A stretch of 63,644 bases of DNA, counting the filler. It is 6 parts of 6 records of this genome, joined end to end, with 100 filler letters (N's around TTAATTAATTAA, not from the genome) between each part and the next. Parts side by side here need not be neighbours in the genome. Positions count along the whole stretch, not along the records: positions 1 to 13,867 come from SRR20825019_1252; 5 more parts are not named here. One strand, given 5' to 3'. Positions within the stretch are counted from its first letter, which is position 1, and each line of letters opens with the position of its first letter. The notes beneath the pieces are model-generated. The model did no database searches, was not told the origin of the DNA, and saw only the letters and a list, made by a program, of their open reading frames with translations. Shown piece after piece: positions 1-13,967 of the stretch. The translations under genes were made by a program, and so were the position numbers.

Positions 1-37
1 CTCAGAAGGTTGCAGGTTTGAATCCTGCCGCGGTCAC
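1..37 (+). tRNA. 3' half of a tRNA, probably tRNA-Arg (truncated by contig start; anticodon not visible)
   Basis: T-arm GCAGG-TTTGAAT-CCTGC followed by acceptor 3' strand CGCGGTC-A; the GGTTTGAATCC T-loop and preceding TCAGAAGGTT resemble Bacteroidetes tRNA-Arg(ACG/CCG). Confidence 0.75.
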
Positions 38-38
38 A
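24..38 (+). repeat. att core, left copy CCTGCCGCGGTCACA
   Basis: Identical to 2338-2352. Confidence 0.9.
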
Positions 39-56
39 AGTTTGAACACCATTTTT

Positions 57-90
57 AAGCCTAAGTATTTGATACTTAGGCTTTTATTTT
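57..90 (+). terminator. Intrinsic terminator after the tRNA, inside the island
   Basis: 12-bp stem AAGCCTAAGTAT/ATACTTAGGCTT, 3-nt loop, T-rich tail. Confidence 0.8.
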
Positions 91-141
91 GAAATTTTTA
101 AGAGTCGCACTACCTTAAAATTGAATTTTCAAATATCTGAA

Positions 142-205
142 TATCAGTTATTTAACTTTTCAAAAATGCAATTTTGTCCCACTAATGACCCACTAGGACC
201 CAGCC
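142..205. promoter_or_regulatory. Left att arm: IHF-like site and tandem arm-like repeats
   Basis: TATCAG-TTAT-TTA (142-154) fits IHF consensus WATCARNNNNTTR; GTCCCACTA (176-184), GACCCACTA (187-195), GACCCAGCC (197-205) at 10-11 bp spacing. Confidence 0.55.
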
Positions 206-291
206 AATATTTAAATTATTAATCTTTTCTGACAGGTTTTTCTATCTTTAAGCCTCCCCCATTTGGTTATAACGTTATCAAAACACATTTA

Positions 292-2280
292 ATGAAGCTC
301 ACCCTTAAAAACAAGTATAAATCACTTGAGCCATTTGAAAGTGATGAATTAAACCCATTGGCAGTAATCACGGGGAAAAATGGATCTGGAAAGACACAAT
401 TGCTTAACCTTATAAGCAAAAAGTTTAATCAAGATAAAGAGGTCGTAAATATCAATATCACTTTTCTTCCAGAAATTAATACAATTCAAACTGAAGGTGT
501 GTCTACAACTGATTCACCAAAAATGAGTTATGAAATTTGGAAAAAATTTATCCACACTAAATACAAAGAATACCAAGCGATTAAGCCACATGCTAAAAAG
601 TTATATCATTTTTTAAAAGACAACGGATTATATCAAAAAATAGGTACCTCTCAAATTGACTATTTAGAGCTGAGGAAAAATTCCTATTTTATGGAATTAC
701 TTGTAGGGCACTCACGAGAAAAAAATCCGACACATAAAGGCGCTTTTAAATTCAATTCAATTTCCATTGGCAACATTCTTGTTTACGACATTTTATCAAT
801 AGATCAGCGTGTTATCGATATTTCCAGAAAAATTTCTGAGGAAACTGGTAAACCAGAAAATGAATTAGAATTCAATGATTTTTTGAACACCACCGTTGAT
901 GAAAATCTACTTGACAGCAATGATTTGTTTTTATCTAAAATTGAGTTGATATTCTTCCATTATGCCAAGAGAAGATATAAAAACGAAATAGCATTTTTCC
1001 GAAAAGAAAGATATGGTGAAAAGAATGATTCAATTTCGGATACTGACTTCATTGACAAATACCCACCTCCTTGGAAATTAATCAATCAAATATTTGATGA
1101 AAATAGAATTGATTTTAACATCAATCCAATAAGCACTAGCAATTTTGATCCTCAGTATGAGATTGAAATAAAACTCACAAAAATATCTTCTGGGGACAAC
1201 ATAGCATTCATCGACCTATCTTCTGGAGAAAAAATAATTATAGGCCTTATCGTAAAGTTATTTTCATCTGAGTATTATTCAGAGAACTTAAAATTTCCAG
1301 AACTATTAATTTTAGATGAACCTGATGCTCATTTGCATCCAGAAATGTCAAAACTTCTTTTGGATGTTCTTGAAAAAACATTTTCTGAGAAATTCGAAAT
1401 CAAAGTTATTTTAACAACGCATTCACCGACAACAGTTGCTCTTGCATCTGAAAACAGCATTTATAAATTAACAAACGGTCCACAAAGTTCTTTAAAGAAA
1501 ATCACAAAAGACGAGGCATTAAAATCTTTAACCGGTTTAATCCCTACCCTAAGTATCGATTACGAAAGCCATAGACAAGTATTTGTAGAAAGTCCAACCG
1601 ACACATATTATTATAGCAACATATATACTGCTTACCAACAACATCAAGACCTAAACCATAAATTATATTTTATATCGAACTCCTCTGGTAAGGGTAACTG
1701 TGAACAGGTATACAAGATTGTAAAGGATTTAAGAGATTCAGGAAATAAAACATGTTACGGAATCGCCGATTGGGATTTAAAAAACGTAGAAAAGAACTTT
1801 ACTGTTGTTCATGGCCTAGACAAACGCTACAGTATTGAAAATTATATTATGGATCCTCTTTACATTATTTGCCTATTGAATGAACTGGGCAATGCAAACG
1901 GGATAAAATCTAAAATTGGTATCCCAGAAATCTACAATGAATATTCAATTGGAAAAGAACCAATTGAAAGATTACAACATTTCATCATGGTTTTTTTCAA
2001 TGAATTTGAAAATGAATTTCCTGCTTACAAATATGAAAGTCCCAAAAAGACAATTAAATATTTTAATGGGAAGGAAATTGAAATCCCAGAATGGTATCTA
2101 GAAATGAAAGGACATGAAATAGTGGACAAACTAAAAAAAGTGTTCTCAGCTCTTGATAAATTTAAGAATGAAGGAGAGATTCAAAAAGCGGTAACCCAAA
2201 TAATAGTTAAGTGCTATCCTTTTGTTCCTATGGATACTATTGAAACATTAAATAAAATTGGAGAAAAAACGTCCCAATAA
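292..2280 (+). CDS. ABC-type (AAA_15/AAA_21-like) ATPase fused to a TOPRIM/DUF4435-like nuclease; candidate anti-phage protein
   Basis: Walker A GKNGSGKT, signature LSSGEK, Walker B LLILDEPD, H-loop TTHSP; TOPRIM VFVESPTD ... GIADWD and YSIENY. Confidence 0.8.
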   Translation: MKLTLKNKYKSLEPFESDELNPLAVITGKNGSGKTQLLNLISKKFNQDKEVVNINITFLPEINTIQTEGVSTTDSPKMSYEIWKKFIHTKYKEYQAIKPHAKKLYHFLKDNGLYQKIGTSQIDYLELRKNSYFMELLVGHSREKNPTHKGAFKFNSISIGNILVYDILSIDQRVIDISRKISEETGKPENELEFNDFLNTTVDENLLDSNDLFLSKIELIFFHYAKRRYKNEIAFFRKERYGEKNDSISDTDFIDKYPPPWKLINQIFDENRIDFNINPISTSNFDPQYEIEIKLTKISSGDNIAFIDLSSGEKIIIGLIVKLFSSEYYSENLKFPELLILDEPDAHLHPEMSKLLLDVLEKTFSEKFEIKVILTTHSPTTVALASENSIYKLTNGPQSSLKKITKDEALKSLTGLIPTLSIDYESHRQVFVESPTDTYYYSNIYTAYQQHQDLNHKLYFISNSSGKGNCEQVYKIVKDLRDSGNKTCYGIADWDLKNVEKNFTVVHGLDKRYSIENYIMDPLYIICLLNELGNANGIKSKIGIPEIYNEYSIGKEPIERLQHFIMVFFNEFENEFPAYKYESPKKTIKYFNGKEIEIPEWYLEMKGHEIVDKLKKVFSALDKFKNEGEIQKAVTQIIVKCYPFVPMDTIETLNKIGEKTSQ

Positions 2281-2322
2281 CTACCCAATAAATATTTAAA
2301 ATAACTGATTATCAATATATTA
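2271..2322. promoter_or_regulatory. Right att arm: tandem arm-like repeats and IHF-like site
   Basis: GTCCCAATA (2271-2279) and TACCCAATA (2282-2290), 11-bp period; TATCAA-TATA-TTA (2310-2322) fits IHF consensus. Confidence 0.55.
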
Positions 2323-2337
2323 AAAAATATAATTAAC

Positions 2338-2352
2338 CCTGCCGCGGTCACA
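2338..2352 (+). repeat. att core, right copy CCTGCCGCGGTCACA
   Basis: Identical to 24-38. Confidence 0.9.
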
Positions 2353-2359
2353 GACAAAT

Positions 2360-2393
2360 AAAAAAACGCCGAGGCTTTGCTTCGGCGTTTTTT
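2360..2393. terminator. Bidirectional intrinsic terminator (probably the original tRNA terminator)
   Basis: A-tract, CGCCGAGGC-TTT-GCTTCGGCG stem, T-tract, directly after the right att copy. Confidence 0.85.
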
Positions 2394-2419
2394 GTTATCC
2401 ATATTTTCCACTACAACAA

Positions 2420-2860
2420 TTAGTACGTTAGGACATTATAGCCCTTCGCCTGTAACTGAAGTACCCGTACAGTCCATGTGGCAACAGGTTCCATGCCCGA
2501 AATTAATTGGTCTTCAGAAACCCCCAATTTTTTCATGGCCACGCTGCATACACTCACTCGAACTTTTCCCTTATACTTTTGGTACAAGTCTTCCAACTCA
2601 GAACCTTTCACCAAGTTCTTCACGAATTTACCCTTTGCAACAATTTCATAATCGGTAATCTCCACACCGCTTGCCAAAAGTTTATCATACAAATGCAACA
2701 CCCCTCTAAAATGCCGCTCTTCACTGACACCAAAAGCAAATTGCTTTGATTTTTGTAGGTCCGATACAATTTCTGCATCAAACTTTTCCTGTGCAACGAG
2801 CATAGGTCCCGAAAAAACGGTCAGGATTGTTAAAATAATGGTGTAAAGAAATGGTTTCAT
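2420..2860 (-). CDS. DsrE-like family exported protein
   Basis: Signal peptide; EIVAKG and VSVCSVAM with conserved Cys; C-terminal LQAKGY typical of DsrE-like proteins. Confidence 0.65.
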   Translation of the reverse strand: MKPFLYTIILTILTVFSGPMLVAQEKFDAEIVSDLQKSKQFAFGVSEERHFRGVLHLYDKLLASGVEITDYEIVAKGKFVKNLVKGSELEDLYQKYKGKVRVSVCSVAMKKLGVSEDQLISGMEPVATWTVRVLQLQAKGYNVLTY

Positions 2861-2912
2861 GTTATACTGTTTTGAGTTGCTCTTTAAAAATACAATTACT
2901 GTTTTAAATAAT

Positions 2913-3515
2913 CTATTTCTGTAATGAATCCAACACGTGTTGGGCTTCTTTCAAATCGAGTTGAAGTTTTTGGTTCTCCAATATATACTGTTCACGCAAT
3001 TGCTCCATTCTGCGTTCAAATTCATCTGCGGGAACATACTCAGGTTTTAAAAGTGTTTCATTAAAAATACTGATGAGGGTAAACAAAAAACTGACTGCAA
3101 CCGCCGAAATCAATCCCATAAGCATCAGTTTTTCACGTTTTAAGTCGGGTGTAGCTTTTTTGATTTGCTTTTTCTCCTCCTTTGTCAGTTTTGGCATTCC
3201 CGACAGTTGTCCAAGGAAGGTATCCCACTTTTCCTCTTCTTTTACATAAAGATTCATAAATCCGCCCTCCTCTAAAAAGTCCTCTGTGCTCGAAGTGGAT
3301 GCCAACATAAATATATCCAATCCGTTACCTCCCATAACATCTAAAAGAGTGGAGTCATAAGCTAGGATTTCCCGTACCAGTTTCTGGACATATTCCAAAC
3401 TGTAATTGGGCCTCAAAAATTCGTCGTACAGGGTATATATTTGAAAGTAGTCGCTCCGCTCGAGAGCATATTCCAAAAAACGGTCTTTCAATTCAGCCTT
3501 AAAGAATTCACTCAT
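2913..3515 (-). CDS. Hypothetical protein with one TM helix and a C-terminal coiled coil
   Basis: 200-aa ORF, hydrophobic LMLMGLISAVAVSFLFTLISIF. Confidence 0.7.
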   Translation of the reverse strand: MSEFFKAELKDRFLEYALERSDYFQIYTLYDEFLRPNYSLEYVQKLVREILAYDSTLLDVMGGNGLDIFMLASTSSTEDFLEEGGFMNLYVKEEEKWDTFLGQLSGMPKLTKEEKKQIKKATPDLKREKLMLMGLISAVAVSFLFTLISIFNETLLKPEYVPADEFERRMEQLREQYILENQKLQLDLKEAQHVLDSLQK

Positions 3516-3666
3516 TTTTAAAAATGGGCGGTTTATGGTTGGTTTTGGTCGTTAGGCTAAATGTAAAGAAATGGGGAATCAGTAGAGTTAGGTCAGGATA
3601 AAAAATTCATAAACTTTGCTGTTAGGATGTTGGTTTTCTCTAATAAAATGTGTGGGATATGCTAAG

Positions 3667-3942
3667 CTAAACGATTTCCGCACTCAACCCGGCCTGAAGC
3701 AATTTACTGCATTTGGGTTCAAGAAAAGAATATTCACCTGTTTTTACTGTGCATTTTCCTTTATAATGCACAATCAGCGAGCATTGTTCCGCCTGTTCGG
3801 GAGTGTGCTCACATACATTGATCAAGGTGGTTATCACGTGGTCAAAGGTATTCACATCGTCGTTAAAAAGAACTATTTCGTGCTCATTTGTTGTCTCTTC
3901 TTCCAAGAGGACATCTTCCAACTCTTTTTCTCTAGTACTCAT
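3667..3942 (-). CDS. clpS: ATP-dependent Clp protease adaptor ClpS
   Basis: IVLFNDDVNTFDHV and IVHYKGKC motifs. Confidence 0.92.
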   Translation of the reverse strand: MSTREKELEDVLLEEETTNEHEIVLFNDDVNTFDHVITTLINVCEHTPEQAEQCSLIVHYKGKCTVKTGEYSFLEPKCSKLLQAGLSAEIV

Positions 3943-3966
3943 TTTATTAACGGAGTTTATGTCTAT

Positions 3967-4794
3967 CTAATTTACATATTTTGCCGCAACCCAATTGTTC
4001 TTCTCCAGATTTTTTTCAAATTCCAAACCATATGCACCACATTTTGAGGAAATTGCATCCAAATCCTCTAAATAGAAGCCACTTAAAAATAAGGAACCGT
4101 TTTTTTTGAGGCAGTTAGCGTAGACCGATATATCTTCCAGTAGAATATTTCGGTTGATATTGGCCAATATCACATCATATTTTTTGCCCTCTAGCAAACT
4201 ACTGTCTCCTTGAAAGGCTTTGATATCGGAGCAACCGTTTCGCTCTACATTTTCTTGGGTATTCAAAAAGCACCATTCATCAATATCTATAGCCTCGGTA
4301 TCTCCCGCGCCACGCTTTTTGGCCAAAATGGCCAGCACACCTGTTCCGCATCCCATATCCAGAACTGATTTTCCATCGAAATCATTGTCCAGAATATGTT
4401 GCAACATCATATGTGTGGTTTCGTGGTGCCCCGTACCAAAACTCATTTTTGGTTCTATAATGATATCGTATTCCACATTGGTCGCCTCATGAAATGGAGC
4501 TCGAACCATACACCTATCTCCTACTATTATGGGATGAAAATTCTTTTCCCATTCTGCATTCCAATTCTGCTGTTCGATTTCCTTCTGTGACCAACTTATT
4601 TCAAAATTTGGATTTTGGAACACAAATAGTTCTTCCAAGGCATCTTCTTTCCATTCTGATTTGAGAATGTAAGCCAATAGTCCTGTTTCATTTTCCACAA
4701 AACTCTCAAACCCCAATTCCCCCAACTCCGCAATCAAAATATCGGTTGCGGGTTGGAGCGGGCTTATTTTAAAGTCGTATTCTAGATAGACCAA
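3967..4794 (-). CDS. prmA: Ribosomal protein L11 methyltransferase
   Basis: PKMSFGTGHHETT, VLDMGCGTG, ANIN. Confidence 0.95.
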   Translation of the reverse strand: MVYLEYDFKISPLQPATDILIAELGELGFESFVENETGLLAYILKSEWKEDALEELFVFQNPNFEISWSQKEIEQQNWNAEWEKNFHPIIVGDRCMVRAPFHEATNVEYDIIIEPKMSFGTGHHETTHMMLQHILDNDFDGKSVLDMGCGTGVLAILAKKRGAGDTEAIDIDEWCFLNTQENVERNGCSDIKAFQGDSSLLEGKKYDVILANINRNILLEDISVYANCLKKNGSLFLSGFYLEDLDAISSKCGAYGLEFEKNLEKNNWVAAKYVN

Positions 4795-4805
4795 TGGATT
4801 TGCTT

Positions 4806-5555
4806 TTAAATGGCCTTGATGATATCCGAGAAATCTTCAGCTTTCAATGAAGCTCCTCCAATCAAACCACCATCTACATCTGGTTTTGAAAATATTTCGG
4901 CAGCGTTGGCAGGCTTAACACTTCCTCCGTACAAAATGGAAACATCCTCGGCAATAGACGAATTGAATCCATCTGCAATTGTTTTTCTGATGAACGCATG
5001 CATTTCCTGAGCTTGCTCTGGACTCGCCGTTTCTCCAGTACCAATGGCCCAAACGGGTTCGTAGGCAAGTACTATCTTGCTCCAAGCGCTGGCATCTAAA
5101 TCAAAAAGTGCGTTTTTTAACTGACTTTCCACTACGGCAAAATGGTTGTCGGATTTTCTATCCTCCAATTCCTCACCAAAGCAGAAAATTACTTTTAGAC
5201 CCTTCTCGATAGCTGTTTTTACCTTTTTGGCCAATAACTCATCGTCTTCACCAAAGTAGGCACGCCTTTCGGAGTGACCCAAAATGACAACATCCACATC
5301 CAAACTAAGTAACATATCAGCAGAAATTTCCCCGGTATATGCCCCACTTTCTGCAAAGTGCATATTTTGGGCTGCCACTTGTATTTTGGAATCTTGCAAT
5401 GCTTGTTTTGCGGCTTGAAGGTTCACAAATGTTGGCGCTACTATCACATCTGCATTGGTATCAGGTAGTTTGGCGGAAAGCTCGGCCAACAATTCCTCCG
5501 TTTCCTGAAGGTTTTTGTTCATCTTCCAATTTCCTGCTACAATCTTTGTTCTCAT
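4806..5555 (-). CDS. tpiA: Triosephosphate isomerase
   Basis: AGNWKMN, GHSERR, AYEPVWAIGTG, GGLIGGAS. Confidence 0.98.
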   Translation of the reverse strand: MRTKIVAGNWKMNKNLQETEELLAELSAKLPDTNADVIVAPTFVNLQAAKQALQDSKIQVAAQNMHFAESGAYTGEISADMLLSLDVDVVILGHSERRAYFGEDDELLAKKVKTAIEKGLKVIFCFGEELEDRKSDNHFAVVESQLKNALFDLDASAWSKIVLAYEPVWAIGTGETASPEQAQEMHAFIRKTIADGFNSSIAEDVSILYGGSVKPANAAEIFSKPDVDGGLIGGASLKAEDFSDIIKAI

Positions 5556-5580
5556 GTTATTTGTTGTTATGTTATACTCT

Positions 5581-5609
5581 TTTGGTGTTTGGTGTTTGGT
5601 GTTTGGTGT
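5581..5609. repeat. Heptamer tandem repeat (TTTGGTG)4 just downstream of a four-helix-bundle gene
   Basis: Read directly: tttggtg tttggtg tttggtg tttggtg t. Confidence 0.9.
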
Positions 5610-5614
5610 AAAAA

Positions 5615-6019
5615 TTATTCTTTTTCCCTATTGTTGAATTTTTGTCCTCTTATTTTAGTGTTTCGAAGGTAATACATAAACGCCCCAATTTTGTTGTTAC
5701 AGTGTTCTGTCATCTCCAGAGCTTTCATGTAATCCTCATTAGAGATTAGCTTCTTGTCGAAAGAACGATAAAATTGAGATTTCAACTCTGTACACGAACC
5801 TTTTGAAAAACTCAAAAAATTATGGAACTCTTTATTCCCACCTCTTCCAAAGCCTTCTGCTATATTATCCATAATTGAACCTGAACTTCGCTCCATTTGG
5901 TTACGCAACGCATAATTGTTCCCCAACTCAGTTGTTTGAAAAGGGTGCTCTACTAGTTGACACAGTTCCCTGGAAATTTTCCAGACTTCCAAATCTTCGA
6001 ACCTATCTATCCTACCCAT
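5615..6019 (-). CDS. Four-helix-bundle protein (23S rRNA IVP / TIGR02436-like)
   Basis: FEDLEVWK ... LRNQMERSSGSIMDNIAEGFGR ... FLSFSKGS.E family motifs. Confidence 0.9.
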   Translation of the reverse strand: MGRIDRFEDLEVWKISRELCQLVEHPFQTTELGNNYALRNQMERSSGSIMDNIAEGFGRGGNKEFHNFLSFSKGSCTELKSQFYRSFDKKLISNEDYMKALEMTEHCNNKIGAFMYYLRNTKIRGQKFNNREKE

Positions 6020-6020
6020 C

Positions 6021-6056
6021 TTACATCAAAACATTTAAACTGAAAAACAACAAACA
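6021..6056. repeat. Degenerate heptad-like repeat upstream of four-helix-bundle gene 1, complementary to 5581-5609
   Basis: Coding strand TGTTTGTTGTTTTTCAGTTTAAATGTTTTGATGT can pair with (ACACCAA)n. Confidence 0.55.
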
Positions 6057-7196
6057 TTAAAACTCCAGTTCCTCAAAATCGTTGTAATGTACCTTTTGTT
6101 GAATAGTCCCCTTGCTGAGCACTAAAATAGCTGGATTAGAGCGCACAATAGTCTTTAAAGTTGTTTCATCTGTAAAATAGAATTCAAAATCCAGTCCGTA
6201 GGTATCGATTAGCTGATTTGCCATATCGCTGCTCGAAGCGGACATTCCAATGACTTTGTAACCGTTTTCAATTGCCTTATCAGTAGTTTTCTTTACCTCT
6301 GGATAAACTTCCTTTTGTGCCTCCTTAATATCATCAACAGTTGCTCCTTTGGTCAAACCTGCTGTTTTGTTTAAATCATAAGCAATCACCATTACCAGCT
6401 TATCCTCTTCCAGCAGTTCAGGAGCATAGTCCTGCCCTTCTTGTTCAATGGTAAAGTCATGAATGGGAGGTTCATACCCTGCTTGTATCTGAGTAGTTTC
6501 CACATCAATAAATTCTCCATCTACCGTAGGATAGTCGCCCTCCGTTACATAAATTTGCTCTTCACCATTCACCTTAAAACGCCAAGCATACTCATAAATG
6601 GGTTTCGGAGCATTTTCGGGAACGGACATTCCTTCTTGTATGTTAGCACCAATTTTATAGGGCCTAAAATCCACCGATGGCAAATGGGCCAATACATGAT
6701 TTGCAAACAGGGCACAAGCCAGCAACGACACTACCCCAACTATCCAATTGACTTTGGAACTGAACAATGGTATAATATATTTTCTGCCAAAAAACAGAAT
6801 CAAAATAAACACCAATAGAATCACGTCTTTAGTAAAGGATTCCCAAGGCGTTAGCTTGACGGCGTCTCCAAAACAGCCACAATCCGTAACTTTATTGAAA
6901 TATGCTGAATAAAACGTCAAGAATGTGAAGAACACGATCATGAGCAGTAGGCTCCAAACCGTGAATTTGGGTTTAAATCCAATCAATAGTAAAATGCCCA
7001 AAATCACCTCAACAATAACCACAAAAATAGAAATGGCCAATGCCAAGGGAGTCAAAAAAGGAATGTCCAATACCCCTGGACTAAAATATTCTTCCAGTTT
7101 GAAGGAAAAACCCATGGGGTCGTTCAACTTTATCAACCCGCTGATAATGAACAACACCCCTACTATAATTCTTGATATCCAGACCAAATATTTCAT
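6057..7196 (-). CDS. DoxX/MauE-like membrane protein (BT_3928 family)
   Basis: N-terminal TM helices with SGLIKLNDP, DCGCFGD motif, C-terminal thioredoxin-like RSNP; ATG at 7196 preferred over TTG 7205. Confidence 0.85.
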   Translation of the reverse strand: MKYLVWISRIIVGVLFIISGLIKLNDPMGFSFKLEEYFSPGVLDIPFLTPLALAISIFVVIVEVILGILLLIGFKPKFTVWSLLLMIVFFTFLTFYSAYFNKVTDCGCFGDAVKLTPWESFTKDVILLVFILILFFGRKYIIPLFSSKVNWIVGVVSLLACALFANHVLAHLPSVDFRPYKIGANIQEGMSVPENAPKPIYEYAWRFKVNGEEQIYVTEGDYPTVDGEFIDVETTQIQAGYEPPIHDFTIEQEGQDYAPELLEEDKLVMVIAYDLNKTAGLTKGATVDDIKEAQKEVYPEVKKTTDKAIENGYKVIGMSASSSDMANQLIDTYGLDFEFYFTDETTLKTIVRSNPAILVLSKGTIQQKVHYNDFEELEF

Positions 7197-7204
7197 ATTT
7201 TTCA

Positions 7205-7240
7205 AAATAAATTTCCAATCCTAAAAAAACAAAACCCAAT
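7205..7240. repeat. Degenerate repeat downstream of four-helix-bundle gene 2
   Basis: Plus strand AAATAAATTTCCAATCCTAAAAAAACAAAACCCAAT, an imperfect inverse of 7601-7631. Confidence 0.5.
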
Positions 7241-7250
7241 TTCCTCTCGA

Positions 7251-7592
7251 TTAAGCCTTTTTCAAAATTGATGATAATATCTTTCTTAACTCGATAGATT
7301 CCTCAATCAAATTCTGCGCTAAATCACTATCAGGATTTGAATCCTTCAGCAAACGTAACCAATACCCCGATTCCTTTGCTTCTTTTCTTGCTATTTTCAA
7401 TCTAAACTTAAAATCCTTGTCCCCCAGTTTTTCATTTGCCTCAATATAATTGGCTCCAACAGAACCAGAAGAACGAATCAATTGTTTTCCATCTTCAATG
7501 TTTATGACGGAGGTTTTCAATGATTTGACATACTTTCTACAATTCTTTGCAAAATTGAATGTTCTATCTTCTAAATCATACTTGTTATTCAA
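7251..7592 (-). CDS. Four-helix-bundle protein (23S rRNA IVP / TIGR02436-like), second subfamily
   Basis: DLEDRT.NFA ... KQLIRSSGSVGANYIEA ... IARKEAKESGYWL. Confidence 0.9.
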   Translation of the reverse strand: MNNKYDLEDRTFNFAKNCRKYVKSLKTSVINIEDGKQLIRSSGSVGANYIEANEKLGDKDFKFRLKIARKEAKESGYWLRLLKDSNPDSDLAQNLIEESIELRKILSSILKKA

Positions 7593-7600
7593 AGTGAATT

Positions 7601-7631
7601 TTTGTTATTTGGATTTTATCATTTGGTATTT
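7601..7631. repeat. Degenerate heptad repeat upstream of four-helix-bundle gene 2
   Basis: Coding strand AAATACC AAATGAT AAAATCC AAATAAC AAA; overlaps the stop codon of the DUF1599 gene. Confidence 0.55.
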
Positions 7632-8164
7632 ACACCCAAATGAATGAGTGCAAAAACTGCATAATTTACCATATCCTGATAGTTGGCATCCACACCCTCG
7701 CTCACCAAAGTCGCACCTTGGTTGTTCTCAATCTGTTTTACGCGCAATAACTTTTGCAAAATCAAATCGGTAAGGGAGCTTACACGCATATCTCGCCACG
7801 CTTCACCATAATCGTGGTTTTTATCCTCCATCAACTTTTTGGTAATGGCTACTTGCTCATCATAAAGGGCAATGGCCTCTTCAGCAGTCAAATCTGGCTG
7901 TTCCACCACGCCTTTCTTAATCTGAATCAACGCCATAATGGAATAATTGATAATCCCGATAAACTCGGAACGCTCGTCTTCGTCCACCTTGCGCACATCG
8001 TTCTGTTGAAGACCGCGAATGCGCTGTGCCTTTATAAAAATCTGGTCTGTTAATGAGGGTAACCTAAGGATTCGCCAAGCGGTACCATAATCCTTGGCCT
8101 TTTTTGAAAACAATTCACGACAGGTTTGTATCACCTCATCGTATTGTTGGGAAGTCTGCTGCAT
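7619..8164 (-). CDS. DUF1599 domain protein (two repeats)
   Basis: Duplicated K..DYG.AWR ... SLTD motif. Confidence 0.85.
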   Translation of the reverse strand: MQQTSQQYDEVIQTCRELFSKKAKDYGTAWRILRLPSLTDQIFIKAQRIRGLQQNDVRKVDEDERSEFIGIINYSIMALIQIKKGVVEQPDLTAEEAIALYDEQVAITKKLMEDKNHDYGEAWRDMRVSSLTDLILQKLLRVKQIENNQGATLVSEGVDANYQDMVNYAVFALIHLGVNTK

Positions 8165-8259
8165 GTATTGTTGCTAATTTGCGTAAATTTCGTCCAACTT
8201 ATCCGTGCCCATGAGCACTTTGCCAAAGATAATGAAACCCGACAAAGCATATATTTTTT

Positions 8260-9093
8260 ATGACCATAAACTGCAAAGGTGAGCTTGTAGACTTAAAAAC
8301 GCCCAGAGTGATGGGCATCCTCAACCTAACGCCCGATTCCTTTTTTGATGGCGGCAAATACAAGGACGAAGCATCCATACTTGACCAAGTTGAGTATATG
8401 CTCAACCATGGCGCAACCTTTATTGATATGGGTGCCTATAGCTCCCGACCCGGTGCCGAGCATGTTCCGGAAGATGAGGAATTGAAACGGATGATTCCCG
8501 TTGTTGACCTTATCCTGAAGAAATTTCCTGATACTTTGATTTCGGTGGATACCTTTCGGAGCAAGGTGGCAACTGAAAGCATTGAACACGGTGCGGCCAT
8601 GATCAACGATATATCAGCTGGAAATCTGGATGAAGCAATGTTCGATACAGTCGCCAATCATCAAGTTCCGTACATTATGATGCACATGAAGGGCACTCCG
8701 AAATCCATGCAAAAGCAAGCGACCTACGACAACTTCATCAACGATCTCAGGTATTATTTTTCAGAGAAAATCAAAGAGACCACATCAAAAAAAATCAACG
8801 ATGTGATAATAGACCCAGGGTTTGGATTTGCCAAAACAACTGGGCAAAATTATACATTGCTCAACCACTTGGATATGTTTCAAACCTTTGGTTTACCCAT
8901 TTTGATAGGCCTGAGCAGAAAATCCATGATTTACAAAGTGCTGGAATCATCACCTCAAGAAGCTTTGAACGGAACCACCGCGCTGCATACCGCGGCACTT
9001 TTAAAAGGAGCCAATATTATTCGGGCCCACGATGTAAAAGAAGCCATGGAATGTGTTAAACTTGTAACGGCCTTAAAAGAGAATGCCCTCTAA
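8260..9093 (+). CDS. folP: Dihydropteroate synthase
   Basis: MGILNLTPDSFFDGG, DPGFGFAK, GLSRKS, RAHDV. Confidence 0.97.
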   Translation: MTINCKGELVDLKTPRVMGILNLTPDSFFDGGKYKDEASILDQVEYMLNHGATFIDMGAYSSRPGAEHVPEDEELKRMIPVVDLILKKFPDTLISVDTFRSKVATESIEHGAAMINDISAGNLDEAMFDTVANHQVPYIMMHMKGTPKSMQKQATYDNFINDLRYYFSEKIKETTSKKINDVIIDPGFGFAKTTGQNYTLLNHLDMFQTFGLPILIGLSRKSMIYKVLESSPQEALNGTTALHTAALLKGANIIRAHDVKEAMECVKLVTALKENAL

Positions 9094-9137
9094 TTTGAGG
9101 TTCTCCTATTTTTGCTAATTTTACAAAAACGCTGCGG

Positions 9138-9926
9138 TTGGATTTTTTAAATTTTATCGAATTCAAGATTACGGATGTCATCGACATAGTCCTAGTGGCC
9201 GCACTCCTCTATTACATTTACAAACTGGTAAAGGGAACGGTAGCCATCAATATTTTTATAGGTATCGTGATTGTTTGGGCATTATGGAAACTTACCGAAT
9301 TGCTTCAAATGAAAATGATCAGCAGTATGGTGGGTGGCTTTATGAACATAGGTCTTATCGCCCTGATCATTGTATTCCAACAAGAGATTCGAAAGTTTCT
9401 GTTAATGGTCGGCTCCACTAATTTTGCCTCCAAAAGAAATTTTTTAAGACGCTTTAAGTTTTTAAAACAAGAAGCTGTCTCCACCACCACGGATGTTGAT
9501 GCCATCATAAATGCCTGCGAACGCATGGCCTCATCCAAAACTGGTGCACTCATCGTTATAGAAAGGAACAACTCCTTGGATTTTGTAAAATCTACCGGAG
9601 ATACGATGGATATAAAAATAACACAGCCTATTTTAGAAAGTATCTTTTTCAAAAATAGTCCGCTGCACGATGGTGCCATTGTAATCCAAGAAAACTTCAT
9701 TACCGCTACCAGAGTGATTTTGCCCGTTTCCAACGACCGCAATATCCCCCTTCGTTTTGGCCTACGCCACAGAGCCGCTGTTGGCATTACCGAAAAAACA
9801 GATGCACTCTGTCTTGTGGTCAGTGAAGAAACAGGTTCCATATCCTACATAAAAAATGGCGATTTTATTCCTTTTAAAAACAAGGAGGAATTGGCAAAAC
9901 GCATTAAAAAGGACTTGGAGCAATGA
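9138..9926 (+). CDS. cdaA: Membrane-bound diadenylate cyclase (CdaA/DacA, DisA_N)
   Basis: Three TM helices, FQQEIR, PLHDGA and GLRHRAA motifs. Confidence 0.92.
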   Translation: MDFLNFIEFKITDVIDIVLVAALLYYIYKLVKGTVAINIFIGIVIVWALWKLTELLQMKMISSMVGGFMNIGLIALIIVFQQEIRKFLLMVGSTNFASKRNFLRRFKFLKQEAVSTTTDVDAIINACERMASSKTGALIVIERNNSLDFVKSTGDTMDIKITQPILESIFFKNSPLHDGAIVIQENFITATRVILPVSNDRNIPLRFGLRHRAAVGITEKTDALCLVVSEETGSISYIKNGDFIPFKNKEELAKRIKKDLEQ

Positions 9927-10705
9927 CGTGCAAAAATTGCGGTGACACCTTAAGAACGGACTTTCTTTATTGTCCCAACTGCGGAGGAAAAGTTATACGT
10001 AACAGAATTACAATTAAAAATCTCTGGACCGATATACTTGAACGGTATTTTAACCTCGACAATACATTCGTGAACACCTTTGTGCATCTGTTCACCAAAC
10101 CTGAGGTAGTTATAGAAGGGTACATACAGGGGCTTCGTAGGAAATACTTGAACCCCATAAGTTATTTAGGGATAGCCTTAACGCTTTCAGGAGTTCAAAT
10201 TTTCCTTATGTCGAAATCCATCGATTTGCTTGATTTCGATTTCTATGACACAGAAGAACAAATAAAATTTCAACAAAAATTGATGGGTTTCATAATGGAC
10301 TATCAATCTTTGGTATTTATTCTTTTCATTCCATTGATGGCCATTTCTGGGTGGCTGTGTTTTGATGAAAAGAAATATAATTTTGCAGAGCGCACCATCA
10401 TTTTCATGTACACGTTATCACATTATAGCGTCGTAATCTTTATCCCATCAGTTTTGATTCTCTTATTTGCTCCAGAAAACTTTATGATATTTTCATTAAT
10501 TGGCTCATTGATGATGCTTTTATATGCCTGCTTCGTAGTTATTCGCGTATCAAGTTCAAAAGGGTTGGCACTGGTTGGAAGGTTAATATTTTTCAATATG
10601 GGTTTTGTAATTCTTTATATGATGATTGCCACATTGATACCGCTTATCATGTTGTTAACCGGTATGTTAAACATTGATGATTTTGTGCCTCCACCTCAAA
10701 ATTAG
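9923..10705 (+). CDS. DUF3667-like membrane protein with N-terminal zinc ribbon
   Basis: CKNC...CPNCG, YIQGLRRKYLNP, several TM helices. Confidence 0.8.
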   Translation: MTCKNCGDTLRTDFLYCPNCGGKVIRNRITIKNLWTDILERYFNLDNTFVNTFVHLFTKPEVVIEGYIQGLRRKYLNPISYLGIALTLSGVQIFLMSKSIDLLDFDFYDTEEQIKFQQKLMGFIMDYQSLVFILFIPLMAISGWLCFDEKKYNFAERTIIFMYTLSHYSVVIFIPSVLILLFAPENFMIFSLIGSLMMLLYACFVVIRVSSSKGLALVGRLIFFNMGFVILYMMIATLIPLIMLLTGMLNIDDFVPPPQN

Positions 10706-10707
10706 AG

Positions 10708-12480
10708 TTAAGCCACTTCCTCTGCCAAAAACTGCGCCTGGTAAAGATCGTTGTAGTAGCCACCTTTTTCCAACAGTTCCTTGTGGGTTCCGACCTCAAT
10801 GATTTTACCGGCATCCATTACAATAATTTTATCCGCTTTTTTAATGGTCGCCAAACGGTGCGCTATAATAATGGAAGTCCTGCCTTCGGTAATCTTGTCG
10901 GTAGCTTCTTGTATCAGTATTTCGGAATAGGTATCCACGGATGATGTAGCTTCATCCAAAATAAGAATACTCGGGTTGCTCACATAGGCTCTTAAAAAGG
11001 CAATCAATTGACGCTGACCGCTGGAGAGCATCGTTCCACGCTCTTTTACGTTGTATTGGTACCCACCTGGAAGGCTCGAAATAAATTCGTGCACTCCAAT
11101 TTGCTTGGCGGCCGCCTCAATCTGTTCCGTGGTGATATCATTATCACGAAGTGAAATGTTATTCGCAATGGTATCTGCAAATAAGAATACATCTTGCAGT
11201 ACAATAGCGATATGTGAACGGAGCGACTTTAATGTATAGTCGTCCAAACACACATTGTCCACCAAAATTTTACCGGAGTTGATCTCGTAGAATCGGTTGA
11301 GCAGATTAATGATAGTCGATTTTCCTGCACCTGTGGCACCGACAATGGCTACGGTTTCACCTGCCTTTACATCAAACGAAATTCCATGGAGTACTTCTTC
11401 ATCGGGCACATAGCCAAAATGTACATCCTTGAATTCAATATCTCCTTTCACATCTTTTTTCTCCACGGTACCGTTATCGTCGATATGGCTATCGGTATCC
11501 AAAATCTTGAATACACGGTTGGCAGCTACCATTCCCATTTGCAGGGTATTGAACTTATCGGCGATTTGACGTAGGGGCCTAAACAGCAGATCCATCAAGA
11601 AAAAGAAAGCCAAAATGGCCCCCTTGTTGTCCATCCCCACATTTTCTATATTCTGAATCACACCAAAATACACCACCAACCCAATACCAATGGAGTTGGA
11701 TATTTCAGCGATAGGGAAGAATATGGAGTTGTACCAGACCGTTTTCAACCAAGCATTCTGATGCTTTTCGTTGATAACACGGAACTTCTCCTTTTCAATC
11801 TCCTCACGGTTGAAGAGTTGAACGATTTTCATTCCAGCTATTCGCTCCTGTACAAATGAATTAAGATTGGATACCTGTGCCCTAACTTCCACAAATGCCA
11901 CCTTCATGGCTTGTTGAAATAGCCGTGTAGCAATTAGGATAATTGGCATAATGGCAAATACGATTAAGGCCAACTTCCAGTTAATGACCACCATAATAAT
12001 GGCTGCGGATAGCATTTTAAGAGCATCGGCAACTATCATAAAAAACCCTTGGCTAAATATTTCGCCAATGCGCTGCATATCCGCTACGGCCCTGGTCACC
12101 AAAACTCCAATGGAAGAATTGTCGAAGTAGGTCATTTTAAAACCTGTCATCTTTTCAAAAAGATTGATACGAATATCCCTGATGACCGACTCGCCCAATA
12201 GGTTCGCATAATAATTGAACAATAATTGCGTAATTACCTGGCCGAGCAAAAAAGCAAGCATGAGCATAACATTGTTGAGCAATTGCTCAGAATCCTTACT
12301 TTCCAGAGACTTGTTGATGATTTCCTTGACCAACAAGGGAATTCCGATAGCAAATGCCGCCGATAAAATGGCCACTATGGCCACCAGCCAAAAAATGCCT
12401 CGATAGGGCCTGGTCCGTGAAAAAACACGCTTGAACAATCGAAAATCAAACGCTTTTCCTACATCATCCTTTTTGCTCAT
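10708..12480 (-). CDS. ABC exporter, fused TMD-NBD (MdlB-like)
   Basis: GATGAGKS, LSSGQRQ, ILILDEATSSVD. Confidence 0.93.
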   Translation of the reverse strand: MSKKDDVGKAFDFRLFKRVFSRTRPYRGIFWLVAIVAILSAAFAIGIPLLVKEIINKSLESKDSEQLLNNVMLMLAFLLGQVITQLLFNYYANLLGESVIRDIRINLFEKMTGFKMTYFDNSSIGVLVTRAVADMQRIGEIFSQGFFMIVADALKMLSAAIIMVVINWKLALIVFAIMPIILIATRLFQQAMKVAFVEVRAQVSNLNSFVQERIAGMKIVQLFNREEIEKEKFRVINEKHQNAWLKTVWYNSIFFPIAEISNSIGIGLVVYFGVIQNIENVGMDNKGAILAFFFLMDLLFRPLRQIADKFNTLQMGMVAANRVFKILDTDSHIDDNGTVEKKDVKGDIEFKDVHFGYVPDEEVLHGISFDVKAGETVAIVGATGAGKSTIINLLNRFYEINSGKILVDNVCLDDYTLKSLRSHIAIVLQDVFLFADTIANNISLRDNDITTEQIEAAAKQIGVHEFISSLPGGYQYNVKERGTMLSSGQRQLIAFLRAYVSNPSILILDEATSSVDTYSEILIQEATDKITEGRTSIIIAHRLATIKKADKIIVMDAGKIIEVGTHKELLEKGGYYNDLYQAQFLAEEVA

Positions 12481-13219
12481 CAAAAATCTCTTTTGGATAT
12501 GAAACCTTGGTCAAATATAATCCTTTTGCCGGGACGGAGACACCCGCCTCTCCCCTATCTTTACTTGCTATAATCTTATGAATATCCTCAGGGGACATTT
12601 TACCCTGCCCCACATCCAACAACGTTCCTACCACTGCACGGACCATGTTCCGTAAAAAACGGTCGGCCGTAATGGTAAAGACCCATTTTTCCTTATCTAC
12701 TGTCCAAACTGCCTCGCGGACATCACATTTGAATGTTTTTACATCGGTATTGGATTTGGAAAAACATTCAAAATCAGTGTAATTCAACATCAATTGCGCC
12801 GCCCTGTTCATCGATGGCAAGTTCAAAGGGTGCTTTACCAAGTGGGCATAATCAAAAAGAAAGGGGCTCTTTTCCTTGACCAGCCAATATTCGTAAGTGC
12901 GTTCCACAGCATCAAAACGGGCATGGGCTGTATCGATAACAGGAAATATGGCCTGTACGGCAATATCATCCGGTAAAAAGGCATTCAATCGGTACACCAA
13001 TTCATCAATATCCGATATTGAATCAACATCCATATGGCAGAACATCTGCTTGGCATGCACTCCTGCATCGGTTCTCCCGGCACCTATCACCTCAACCTTT
13101 TCACGTAACAATGTGGACAGTGCTTTTTCCAAAACCTCTTGCACGGTGATGGCATTGGGCTGGTTCTGCCAACCATGATATGCCTTGCCGAAATAAGAAA
13201 ATTGGACGAAATATCTCAA
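12464..13219 (-). CDS. truA: tRNA pseudouridine(38-40) synthase
   Basis: HGWQ.Q, GAGRTDAGVHA, FLRNMVR. Confidence 0.97.
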   Translation of the reverse strand: MRYFVQFSYFGKAYHGWQNQPNAITVQEVLEKALSTLLREKVEVIGAGRTDAGVHAKQMFCHMDVDSISDIDELVYRLNAFLPDDIAVQAIFPVIDTAHARFDAVERTYEYWLVKEKSPFLFDYAHLVKHPLNLPSMNRAAQLMLNYTDFECFSKSNTDVKTFKCDVREAVWTVDKEKWVFTITADRFLRNMVRAVVGTLLDVGQGKMSPEDIHKIIASKDRGEAGVSVPAKGLYLTKVSYPKEIFDEQKG

Positions 13220-13307
13220 TGGAATGGATTACTTTTAAGCCTGTAAAGATAATTGAATCCTTTCCAACATAAATCCGACCGTTGGTTTTTAGCATATTTT
13301 TAGCGAA

Positions 13308-13802
13308 ATGAAGAAAATCCTGTTGCTTTCCGACACGCATGGCCATATGGACCCAACCATTTTAAAATATGCAGCGCAAGCTGATGAAGTTTGGCATGCA
13401 GGCGACATTGGAAGCCTATCTGTTACCGATGAGCTGGAAGCCCTAAAACCGGTTAGAGGCGTGCACGGAAATATTGATGACCATGTGATCCAAAAAGAAT
13501 TTCCAGAAAATAACCGATTTATGTGCGAAGGGGTCGATGTTTGGATTACGCACATTGGCGGTTATCCGAACCGCTATAATATTCGGGTACGGGATGAAAT
13601 CAGAAACAATCCGCCCAAACTATTTATTTGTGGACATTCCCATATATTAAAGGTAATGCACGACAAAAAATTGGGGCTGTTGCACATGAATCCAGGGGCA
13701 TGTGGAAAACATGGTTTTCATCAGGTACGCACTATGTTGCGTTTTGTTATCGATGGGGAAAAAATATCGGATTTAGAAGTTGTGGAATTGGGCAAGCGAT
13801 AG
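13308..13802 (+). CDS. YfcE-family metallophosphoesterase
   Basis: LSDTHG, HAGDIG, GNID, GHSH, NPGA. Confidence 0.9.
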   Translation: MKKILLLSDTHGHMDPTILKYAAQADEVWHAGDIGSLSVTDELEALKPVRGVHGNIDDHVIQKEFPENNRFMCEGVDVWITHIGGYPNRYNIRVRDEIRNNPPKLFICGHSHILKVMHDKKLGLLHMNPGACGKHGFHQVRTMLRFVIDGEKISDLEVVELGKR

Positions 13803-13812
13803 CCAAATACAT

Positions 13813-13841
13813 AAAAACCCCGGCCAAAGCCAGGGTTTTTT
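13813..13841 (+). terminator. Intrinsic terminator
   Basis: AAAAACCCCGGC-CAAA-GCCAGGGTTTTTT. Confidence 0.7.
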
Positions 13842-13867
13842 CGCACTAATACTACTAAGAGGTTAGG

Positions 13868-13967
13868 NNNNNNNNNNNNNNNNNNNNNNNNNNNNNNNNN
13901 NNNNNNNNNNNTTAATTAATTAANNNNNNNNNNNNNNNNNNNNNNNNNNNNNNNNNNNNNNNNNNNN
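13868..13967. other. Artificial contig linker
   Basis: N-run, TTAATTAATTAA (stops in all six frames), N-run; GC content jumps across it. Confidence 0.98.

Follow-up and report, generated by a model that had tools for sequence, protein, structure and literature searches.

What are two genes of a protein family named after the intervening sequences of 23S rRNA doing in the gaps of a protein-coding operon, and what is the nature of the low-complexity DNA that flanks each of them? The question is raised by a locus in the window, by which we mean the whole stretch of DNA analysed here (63,644 nucleotides, or 63.6 kb), in which six unrelated contigs are joined. On the minus strand of contig 1 (positions 1-13867; SRR20825019_1252) the genes follow one another, all co-oriented, in the order DUF1599-hbB-BT_3928-hbA-tpiA-prmA-clpS, where hbA and hbB denote the two four-helix-bundle (4HB) genes under study. 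An original prediction made on this DNA had proposed that each of them is wrapped in complementary heptad repeats and inserted into the operon. Our finding is that the 4HB module enclosed by a stem is genuine: the design recurs throughout the family, in five phyla, has to all appearances gone unreported, and extends the concept of the intervening sequence (IVS) from rRNA to operons. The weight of this finding rests on the family-wide pattern and not on the two eroded copies in the window; for the window alone the result is a modest one, namely two conserved accessory genes with largely decayed arms.

To our knowledge, PF05635, the family in question, is without a known function outside Avd, the accessory protein of diversity-generating retroelements (DGRs); intergenic heptamer repeats, catalogued since 1990, are likewise unexplained as far as we know. 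The family is very large, hbA being matched at E <= 1e-3 by 7,246 representatives of clusters formed at 50% identity. Hence, a fixed association of 4HB genes with heptamer arrays would, if true, unite rRNA IVSs, repeats of the short tandemly repeated repetitive (STRR) type and an orphan protein family in a single element. It would also predict sites of processing, by RNase III or otherwise, within many operons, including those of CRISPR-cas and restriction-modification systems, and provide a simple annotation signature for both cassettes and their relics.

Two Divergent Members of the Intervening-Sequence Protein Family

Both hbA and hbB are genuine genes of the PF05635/TIGR02436 family of 4HB proteins (23S rRNA intervening-sequence protein): they score 94.7 and 54 bits, respectively, against PF05635 (curated cut-off 33.8) and 86.8 and 76.1 bits against TIGR02436 (curated cut-off 24). 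Their proteins are only 21% identical, which rules out that they are duplicates of one another and bears out the claim that two dissimilar TIGR02436-like genes fill gaps of this co-oriented run. The two cassettes represent different subfamilies, with arms of opposite polarity.

An AlphaFold2 model of hbA, built from 41 aligned sequences, displays four long helices (predicted local distance difference test score 92.8). Foldseek matches this model to the structures 2gsc (TM 0.79/0.90) and 2rld (TM 0.70/0.85), and also to Avd (4dwl_C; TMq 0.67, TMt 0.80), with further matches to Avd chains in DGR ribonucleoproteins (4dwl, 8ub7 and others), at a sequence identity to Avd of 5-11%. The fold shared with Avd, which the original prediction had invoked, is thus confirmed on the model of hbA, the fold of hbB being assigned from sequence alone. 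In phmmer searches, hbA matches PDB 2GSC (Xanthomonas XCC0516; E 1.8e-8) and hbB matches PDB 2RLD (Bacteroides BT_0352, 'S23 ribosomal protein family'; E 1.8e-10), and these closest solved structures comprise five chains apiece.

Both 4HB proteins are under purifying selection: dN/dS is 0.062 for the hbA type and 0.088 for the hbB type, as against 0.045 for tpiA and 0.048 for BT_3928, values that are rough since dS exceeds 1. A DGR context was considered and rejected, as Pfam scanning of 16 of the 18 open reading frames (ORFs) of at least 110 aa in contig 1 matched no reverse-transcriptase family, a check that did not extend to template and variable repeats. PADLOC, likewise, gave no defence-system match for either gene. 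Given the lack of both reverse-transcriptase and PADLOC matches, hbA and hbB are not the Avd genes of a DGR.

Complementary Tandem Arrays around 4HB Genes of Five Phyla

The evidence for the design comes from plasmid-borne 4HB genes. The PLSDB plasmids were searched with tblastn using three queries, namely hbA, hbB and a cyanobacterial homologue, which gave 20, 30 and 45 records; from these, 25 non-redundant 4HB loci were kept, eight from the first (hbA) list and 17 from the later ones (loci of our samples are designated by L and a number). Thirteen of the 17 are from the hbB list, one per organism, each of them a cyanobacterium or a member of the Bacteroidota except Chlorohelix (L101); Treponema (hbB list) along with Picosynechococcus, Leptolyngbya and Gemmatirosa (third-query list) were added to widen the spread. 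The sample covers the Cyanobacteriota, Bacteroidota, Chloroflexota, Spirochaetota and Gemmatimonadota.

A common plan is seen in this sample, with a tandem array upstream of the 4HB gene and a reverse-complement array downstream of it. Laid out in full, the cassette consists of an array, usually of a 7-nt unit, a short spacer, a 4HB gene of ~110-135 codons and the reverse-complement array, and it is usually co-oriented between the genes of an operon. For example, (GGGAACA)n upstream is answered by (TGTTCCC)n downstream in L085, (AATTCGC)n by (GCGAATT)n in L095, (TTCGTAA)n by (TTACGAA)n in L090, (CCAGTGA)n by (TCACTGG)x12 in L094, (CAGGTGA)n by (TCACCTG)n in L088, (AAGGTTY)n by (AACCTTR)n in L081 from Riemerella, and, with an 8-mer unit, (GAGGGCAG)n by (CTCCTGCC)n in L105 from Gemmatirosa. 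Arrays of equal period are present on both sides in 22 of the 25 loci (period 7 in 18, 8 in three and 6-7 in one), and the units are reverse complements within one mismatch in 15 of the 25.

The predicted pairing of the arms is both strong and partner-specific. The duplex z-score is -3 or below in 13/25 elements and -2 or below in 18/25, as against 0/25 at the latter threshold for 25 annotated neighbour genes of the same loci taken as controls (median z +0.53). When whole elements are folded, at least 30 cross pairs enclose the ORF in 18/25, the random-window baseline being 9%. An element's own downstream arm is the best partner among 25 candidates in 12/25 cases, and ranks first or second in 15/25. 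Almost every element has a repeat unit of its own while its two arms remain complementary, which is covariation at the level of the whole array. The downstream arm starts just 0-5 nt past the stop codon in 13/25 elements. The claim that a 4HB gene comes wrapped in complementary heptads therefore stands for the family, and is weak, as discussed below, for the copies in the window.

Most cassettes reside inside operons: 19 of the 24 that are annotated are co-oriented with both neighbours (two-sided binomial p ~0.007, for cases that are not fully independent). Their sites include cas6|cas4 (twice), cas10|cmr3, csx2|cas1, helicase|methylase (three times), DUF1156|HEPN, RND (resistance-nodulation-division) adaptor|permease and KAS III|peptidase.

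With respect to particular contexts, cassettes in CRISPR-cas operons are found among L083, L088, L092, L093, L097 and L103, including two that lie antisense between cas2 and cas1. The 4HB family has been scored as CRISPR-linked (PMC10910872), and cassettes of this kind may explain that scoring. In L090, L096 and L101 the cassette separates a helicase gene from a methyltransferase gene in what resembles a restriction system. An exception in its arms is L083, at 470-1056 of a Pseudanabaena galeata plasmid, which has ~15 copies of AAAAGCT upstream and ~14 of AAAAGCC downstream; these arrays are direct, not inverted, a duplex of -137.5 kcal/mol being obtained once the downstream flank is reverse-complemented. 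Two extra Nostoc flagelliforme copies duplicate L091 and are left out of all counts. As a test of mobility, the three identical plasmid copies from this organism proved uninformative, their identity running far past the arms into the shared backbone.

Filled and Empty Sites among Relatives of the Host

The host of contig 1 is a marine, Flagellimonas-like flavobacterium, the core proteins of the contig being 82-99% identical to those of Flagellimonas/Muricauda species (Flavobacteriaceae). Homologues of BT_3928 in Flagellimonas/Muricauda (97-66% identity) were used to collect 80 loci, which together with the window make 81 loci (1.6 Mb), with ORFs and homologues called by script. In these, 4HB genes are confined to the two gaps that flank BT_3928, namely site 1 (DUF1599|BT_3928) and site 2 (BT_3928|tpiA); a broader hidden Markov model from 41 diverse homologues recovered no further 4HB genes in the 81 loci.

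Site 1 is filled in 13/81 loci, with two truncated copies (L005 and L070). In 41/81 it is empty, with DUF1599 and BT_3928 overlapping by 4 nt (ATGA), and in 13/81 more the gap between the host genes is at most 30 nt. In eight loci the place of the 4HB gene is taken by an unrelated filler of ~180 nt that is conserved, and the remaining six have gaps of 64-113 nt, which in L047, L052 and L054 are purely heptad arrays, (GAACTTG)n. Site 2 is filled by an intact gene in 10/81 loci and by a decayed remnant in L059 (tblastn E 2.6e-8); the leader measures 10-36 nt in some 50 loci, and the gap 41-88 nt in 17. Five of these 17 alleles, those of L002, L003, L005, L009 and L075 (48-64 nt), retain the last CACCAAA unit followed by AGTATAACATAA, as in filled alleles; they are either deletion derivatives or alleles in which an array grew from native leader sequence.

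As filled and empty sites coexist, with the common empty state being the ATGA overlap together with a BT_3928-tpiA gap of 20-36 nt, the 4HB genes are insertions, as had been proposed, and this within a single genus. The genes at site 1 are all of the hbB type and those at site 2 all of the hbA type. The identity of hbA across its orthologues (72-99%) is close to that of tpiA (79-99%), so that the divergence of the cassette follows that of the flanking core genes, and each cassette is orthologous at its site across the genus. On a FastTree phylogeny of four concatenated core proteins, the filled and empty states change at least 15 times at site 1 and at least eight times at site 2. The nearest sister of the window, L004, illustrates this patchiness in having an empty site 1 with the ATGA overlap and a 99% identical hbA at site 2. 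The window locus is itself a mosaic: BT_3928 is nearest to those of L001 and L075, tpiA to that of L004 and hbB to that of L014. Given such mosaicism, patchy presence is explicable by homologous recombination within the genus, without active transposition. Vertical conservation at these positions, which the original prediction held would speak against it, is found in part, the sites being patchily filled and their occupants being orthologous and diverging with the core genes. All told, hbA and hbB are old insertions with conserved proteins, polymorphic in the genus and occasionally decaying.

The insertions have also left their imprint on the host protein. Empty alleles of DUF1599 end in ...GAAGAATGA over the start of BT_3928 and filled ones in ...CCAAATGA/TAA; in the latter, the DUF1599 frame enters the upstream heptad arm (7619-7640 in the window; ~9504-9544 in L001, L002, L017 and L075), so that the host protein takes both a new C-terminal tail and its stop codon from the arm. 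The cassettes contain no transposase or recombinase, no target-site duplication is visible at filled/empty boundaries, and the copies are site-specific orthologues. There is, moreover, no sign of recent transposition at either site, near-identical copies in differing contexts being absent among those observed.

The ~180-nt filler of site 1 (L002 at 9819-10000, L017, L021, L022, L024, L027, L034 and L026) has a mean identity of 70% and an invariant core, TTGGTGAAAATT.GTG..AT..GTGTCAGA, and its outer boundaries coincide with those between which the sister genomes L075 and L001 have their 4HB cassette. Rfam at its gathering threshold (L002, L022 and L040) found no RNA family in the filler or in the flanks, and the filler's consensus folds weakly (-3.8 kcal/mol, a single compensatory pair); a small RNA, a relic and another cassette are all conceivable identities. 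In two outgroup genera (L068 and L069), the gap at site 2 is ~510 nt long and holds a different small gene, the translation of which is unlike 4HB proteins (no tblastn match); hence, site 2 accepts other insertions too.

The Arms in the Window and in Flagellimonas Orthologues

Composition counts of the four flanks show a strong skew and uphold the claim of opposite polarity in the two genes: hbB has A15 C5 G0 T6 upstream and G12 T21 A11 C1 downstream, and hbA has T21 G8 A7 C1 upstream and A32 C16 downstream. Tandem Repeats Finder (TRF) identifies a single true heptad array at the flanks in the window, at 5581-5609 (4.1 copies, 100% match), which reads TTTGGTG on the plus strand and CACCAAA on the mRNA strand. 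This array has the head-to-tail 7-nt units and variable copy number that characterise STRR-like repeats, and the other three flanks do not.

When each whole element is folded to its minimum free energy, 45 cross pairs join the hbA flanks, a number reached by 2% of 129 random 600-nt windows, and 17 join the hbB flanks, reached by 22% of such windows. The predicted pairing of the hbA arms would overlie the start region of tpiA, and could affect its translation or not do so at all. The 25 longest repeats listed include no inverted repeat that joins the two flanks of hbA or those of hbB. On the strand that carries the genes, a scan for sigma-70 promoters and terminators drew a blank in all four gaps, Bacteroidota promoters being outside that model, and there is no terminator-like site in the gaps around hbA or hbB. 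The consensus TTTG-N17-21-TAnnTTTG, which we take to be that of Bacteroidota promoters, is absent from the flanks, its single occurrence in the window being at 10697-10729.

The relatives present a clearer picture of the arms at site 1. The upstream arm is (AAAATCC)x4.4 and reaches inside the 3' end of DUF1599, and the downstream arm has up to nine copies of AATTTGG; in L035, L075, L040 and L044 each unit is the reverse complement of the other to within 1-2 mismatches, and in L075 the (AAAATCC)n / (AATTTGG)n arms attain a duplex z of -4.4. Elements at site 2 share a conserved U/G-rich upstream flank (TGTTTGTTGTTTTT...), with (CACCAAA)n downstream in 1 to 12.4 copies. In the window itself the arms have decayed to a skewed composition and one short heptad array, and any stem here is marginal.

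Arrays also occur in other arrangements in these loci. In L068, complementary arms (AGTACAAAGTA... / TACTTTGTACT...) surround just ~40 nt between divergent genes, and L064 has three arrays (TAGTTGA, ACTGTTC and ACTGCTC) in a single 560-nt gap.

Relationship to Known Repeats and Elements

Two of the heptamer arrays catalogued by Rehm et al. 2015 adjoin 4HB genes. In Xanthomonas, repeat #15 is situated between bccP (XCC0517) and XCC0516 and overlaps the start of the latter (PMC4692102); XCC0516 encodes the protein of structure 2GSC, the nearest relative of hbA to have been solved. Repeat #14 of Nostoc PCC 7120, ~18 copies of (GGGGATT) spanning 129 nt, starts 1 nt past alr0548 and ends 55 nt before alr0549 (PMC4692102), a gene annotated as encoding a four helix bundle protein (PMC8491059). 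The available text of PMC4692102 is without comment on such a link, 'S23' and 'helix bundle' having no occurrences in it. MacGregor 2015 reported heptamer arrays in Flavobacteriaceae (Gramella, Aequorivita) and cyanobacteria, and TAACTGA in Beggiatoaceae, cyanobacteria and Bacteroidetes (PMC4679880); in that text, as available, 'S23' and 'intervening' do not occur and the two occurrences of 'helix' are unrelated. In the full-text literature, the coverage of which leaves most subscription journals outside, we found no prior description linking 4HB genes with heptamer arms.

The cassettes resemble these heptamer simple sequence repeats (cyanobacterial STRR; GGGAATC/GGGGAYT of Xanthomonas and Nostoc; TAACTGA) in their 7-nt tandem intergenic units of variable copy number, and those of Xanthomonas also in that arrays are sometimes in convergent inverted pairs, with 70-75 such pairs per genome (PMC4692102). 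They are unlike the repeats of PMC4692102 and PMC4679880, for which no function is given there, in being tied to one gene family as complementary pairs around the gene.

A close parallel is with the ORF-bearing IVSs of 23S rRNA in Leptospira and Coxiella, which encode the same protein family, PF05635 being named after the IVS protein. The rRNA IVSs have complementary termini that form a stem, as the arms of the cassettes may do, and, like the cassettes, are sporadic among relatives; the rRNA stem is cut by RNase III (PMC4990558). In Coxiella, RNase III cuts the 28-bp terminal stem of the S23p-bearing IVS in vitro, and the ends fall mid-stem (PMC4990558). In contrast to rRNA IVSs, the cassettes lie between protein-coding genes of operons and not in an rRNA helix (helix 9, 25 or 45 of 23S rRNA); their arms across the family are tandem heptamer arrays as against presumably unique inverted repeats; and in the window the arms are weak. 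Further, whereas the ORF of the Coxiella IVS is reported to be decaying (PMC4990558), the hbA and hbB proteins are under purifying selection.

Avd shares the four-helix-bundle fold by Foldseek, the difference being the lack of a reverse transcriptase among the Pfam matches of the ORFs scanned on contig 1. Other elements offer partial parallels: MITEs (miniature inverted-repeat transposable elements) and the repetitive extragenic palindromic and bacterial interspersed mosaic elements (REP/BIME) have inverted repeats able to form hairpins, integron attC cassettes are promoter-less cassettes inside operons, and the intercistronic RNase III sites of phage T7 are processing stems between cistrons. 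Unlike all of these, the arms of the 4HB cassettes are tandem arrays with element-specific units that enclose a conserved protein gene, and they have no associated recombinase or transposase.

A Proposed Transcript-Level Stem and Its Alternatives

To account for the locus, we propose that the window carries two old insertions of 'IVS-type' 4HB cassettes in the DUF1599-BT_3928-tpiA operon, the arms of which pair and thereby loop the gene out of the transcript, a proposition that we regard as evenly poised between right and wrong. Briefly, its mechanism may be envisaged thus. The arms would pair in the polycistronic host RNA, making the cassette the loop of a long stem. This looping-out would bring the upstream stop codon and the downstream start codon near each other, and might insulate the host operon from the insertion. 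The paired arms would also offer a double-stranded substrate for RNase III, by analogy with the rRNA IVSs; such cutting is proposed because the anatomy matches the layout of the ORF-bearing 23S rRNA IVSs, in which the S23p gene sits in the loop of a long stem. Finally, the tandem arrays would render the stem tolerant of slippage, as any register could pair and a one-sided expansion would still be complementary.

Several observations weigh against this proposal. In the plasmid sample, the best-matching arrays are direct and not inverted in 6/25 elements (two of which are also inverted by eye), tandem arrays on both sides are wanting in 3/25, and 5/24 annotated cassettes are antisense to their neighbours, including L089 and L094 with clear arms; the last would fit a stem in so far as complementary arms could pair whichever strand is transcribed. 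Among the 14 well-paired elements, 478/543 arm positions are Watson-Crick, and the mismatches comprise 11 G.U, 19 A.C and 35 transversions, so that there is no sense-strand excess of G.U over A.C and no RNA-specific signature. A duplex z of -2 or below is reached by only 4/13 elements at site 1 and 0/10 at site 2. In the window, the ~7-nt periodicity claimed for the flanks is sustained for one of them, the hbA downstream flank with its (CACCAAA)x4.1 (lag-7 autocorrelation z 3.9, p 0.001), and is not significant in the other three (p 0.10-0.28). The complementarity claimed for the arms of the two genes does not exceed what their composition provides: RNAduplex gives -11.1 kcal/mol (z -0.9) for hbB and -16.9 kcal/mol (z -1.2) for hbA with the intergenic flanks against shuffles, and 100-nt flanks against dinucleotide shuffles give z of only -0.7 and -0.5. 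The 3' part of the hbA downstream flank (AAACACCAAACAGTATAACATAA...) is also present in the gene-less 48-64 nt alleles, and the A/C-rich arm of hbA may, judging from this, be native tpiA leader in part. Heptad arrays or hairpins are found without a 4HB gene in L040 (15723-15812), L064 (3736-4251) and L068 (9213-9344), and the G-rich heptamer arrays catalogued by Rehm et al. 2015 include ~186 of GGGAATC in Xanthomonas (PMC4692102). These gene-less arrays may be what is left of lost cassettes, a possibility to which the gene-less site 1 alleles of L047, L052 and L054 point, or else an independent feature of the genome put to use by the cassettes. The absence of wobble tolerance and the existence of arrays and hairpins without a 4HB gene are what temper our reading.

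The foremost alternative is that the flanks in the window are ordinary low-complexity intergenic DNA of the Bacteroidota, comprising A-rich, unstructured leaders ahead of start codons, T/G-rich sequence ahead of a gene and one slippage-prone microsatellite, the 4HB genes being merely small accessory genes and the complementarity a by-product of opposite composition that is functionless here. It accommodates the duplex energies within the shuffle range and the missing periodicity of three flanks, and it is in line with the A/C-rich tpiA leaders of empty sites (e.g., ACATAACACTAAGAAAAACCAAATAAC), the generality of heptamer arrays in some Bacteroidota, cyanobacteria and Xanthomonas (PMC4679880, PMC4692102) and the range of CACCAAA copy number from 1 to 12, as slippage predicts. 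However, we judge it rather unlikely, for it sits poorly with the partner-specific inverted arrays of 15-18 out of 25 independent 4HB genes as against none of 25 neighbour genes, and with the complementary (AAAATCC)n / (AATTTGG)n arms that site 1 orthologues of the same genus retain. Moreover, the 41 alleles with the ATGA overlap have no arrays, which therefore arrive with the cassette, and the flanks are devoid of the full Bacteroidota promoter consensus.

A second alternative, which we hold to be unlikely, is that the arms act on DNA, either as terminal inverted repeats or hairpin ends of a (formerly) mobile cassette, with the 4HB protein perhaps as a cofactor, or as repeats kept by template switching or gene conversion, the RNA stem being incidental. 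The symmetry of the G.U and A.C mismatches is what DNA-level upkeep predicts: the lack of a wobble excess fits an origin or maintenance in DNA (by template switching or conversion between inverted repeats), or else very young arms. The nearly perfect Watson-Crick match of the arms, their presence on the antisense cassettes L089 and L094 and the patchy distribution all point the same way, as does site 1, where identical outer boundaries enclose a differing interior, a 4HB gene in L075/L001 and an unrelated filler of ~150 nt in L002/L017. According to older proposals (cited in PMC4990558), moreover, IVSs are what transposition has left behind, or else are mobile elements whose ORF serves as a mobility factor. 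Against mobility stand the lack, noted above, of transposases, target-site duplications and near-identical copies in other contexts, the placement of the identical Nostoc flagelliforme copies inside larger duplicated plasmid segments, the orthology of the cassettes at each site and their divergence along with the host genes, and the mosaic window locus, where homologous recombination can account for the patchiness.

It is distinctly improbable that the heptad arrays are instead putative RNA or DNA binding sites of the cassette's own, presumably pentameric, Avd-like 4HB protein, in autoregulation or a ribonucleoprotein, with repeat number tuning the downstream gene: the fold like that of Avd, itself part of the DGR ribonucleoprotein, the five chains each of 2GSC and 2RLD, and the periodic arrays adjoining the gene, with their short distance from the stop codon, would suit such a role, but the unit sequence differs in almost every element, which makes a conserved sequence-specific site unlikely, and arrays are also found without 4HB genes.

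Returning to the reading of the cassettes as looped-out insertions, it can be extended well beyond the window. The 4HB cassettes with inverted heptamer arms would then be pan-bacterial 'protein-coding intervening sequences' that colonise operons (housekeeping, CRISPR-cas, restriction-modification and efflux) as well as rRNA, are looped or cut out via their arms, and leave solo arrays or hairpins upon loss of the gene, thereby constituting a major source of the unexplained heptamer repeats of cyanobacteria (STRR), Xanthomonas and the Bacteroidota. We put forward this generalization tentatively, as a possibility that on present evidence we lean against.

Genomic Setting and Additional Observations

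The features at the locus are collected in Table 1.

Table 1. Genes of the DUF1599-tpiA segment on contig 1 and the flanks of the two 4HB genes, in order of position in the window.
Feature	Position	Strand	Evidence
tpiA, host gene, 3' of site 2	4806..5555	-	PF00121, 332 bits
hbA downstream flank = tpiA leader, A/C-rich, (CACCAAA)x4.1	5556..5614	-	TRF, lag-7 autocorrelation
hbA, 134 aa, 4HB (PF05635/TIGR02436), site 2 cassette (BT_3928|tpiA)	5615..6019	-	profiles, AlphaFold2, Foldseek, phmmer
hbA upstream flank, U/G-rich (TGTTTGT TGTTTTT ...), weak partner of the A/C-rich flank	6020..6056	-	composition, conserved in filled orthologues
BT_3928-family membrane protein (DoxX/MauE N-terminal), between the cassettes	6057..7196	-	NF045576, 436 bits; MauE and DoxX matches
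hbB downstream flank, U/G-rich, 5' of BT_3928; degenerate relic of the (TTTGGAA)n array of relatives	7197..7250	-	composition
hbB, 113 aa, 4HB (PF05635/TIGR02436), site 1 cassette (DUF1599|BT_3928)	7251..7592	-	profiles, phmmer
hbB upstream flank, A/C-rich, entering the last DUF1599 codons	7593..7640	-	composition; weak 14-nt x2.2 repeat (AAATACCAAATAAC)
DUF1599, host gene, 5' of site 1	7619..8164	-	PF07659, 199.5 bits

Both 4HB genes are wholly inside contig 1, which has a GC content of ~0.40. Across the window the contigs range from 0.40 to 0.67, with sharp jumps between them, and contig 1 alone belongs to the Flagellimonas-like organism. The contigs are joined by linkers of the form N40-TTAATTAATTAA-N40, at 13868-13967 (13912), 25687, 34924, 41033 and 54110, with 440 N in total; reading features across these joins is invalid. 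In positions 3000-9000 of the window, Rfam in E-value mode found no rRNA, and the Rfam scans as a whole returned only tRNAs and two chance-level matches.

Across the aligned loci, BT_3928 has a conserved start, ATGAAATAT, which corresponds to the ATG at 7196 in the window; the TTG start called at 7205 is thus probably wrong. Compared with the remaining 76 loci, the window and L001, L002, L026 and L075 have a BT_3928 gene that is 45 nt (15 aa) longer. Positions 292-2280, at the beginning of contig 1, encode a 662-aa ATPase of the AAA_21/AAA_15 type, with matches to AbiEii-like or OLD-like families, which is possibly a defence gene. Elsewhere in the window, a run of 24 G at 40965-40988, ~45 nt ahead of a contig linker, is likely an artefact of sequencing or assembly at a contig end.

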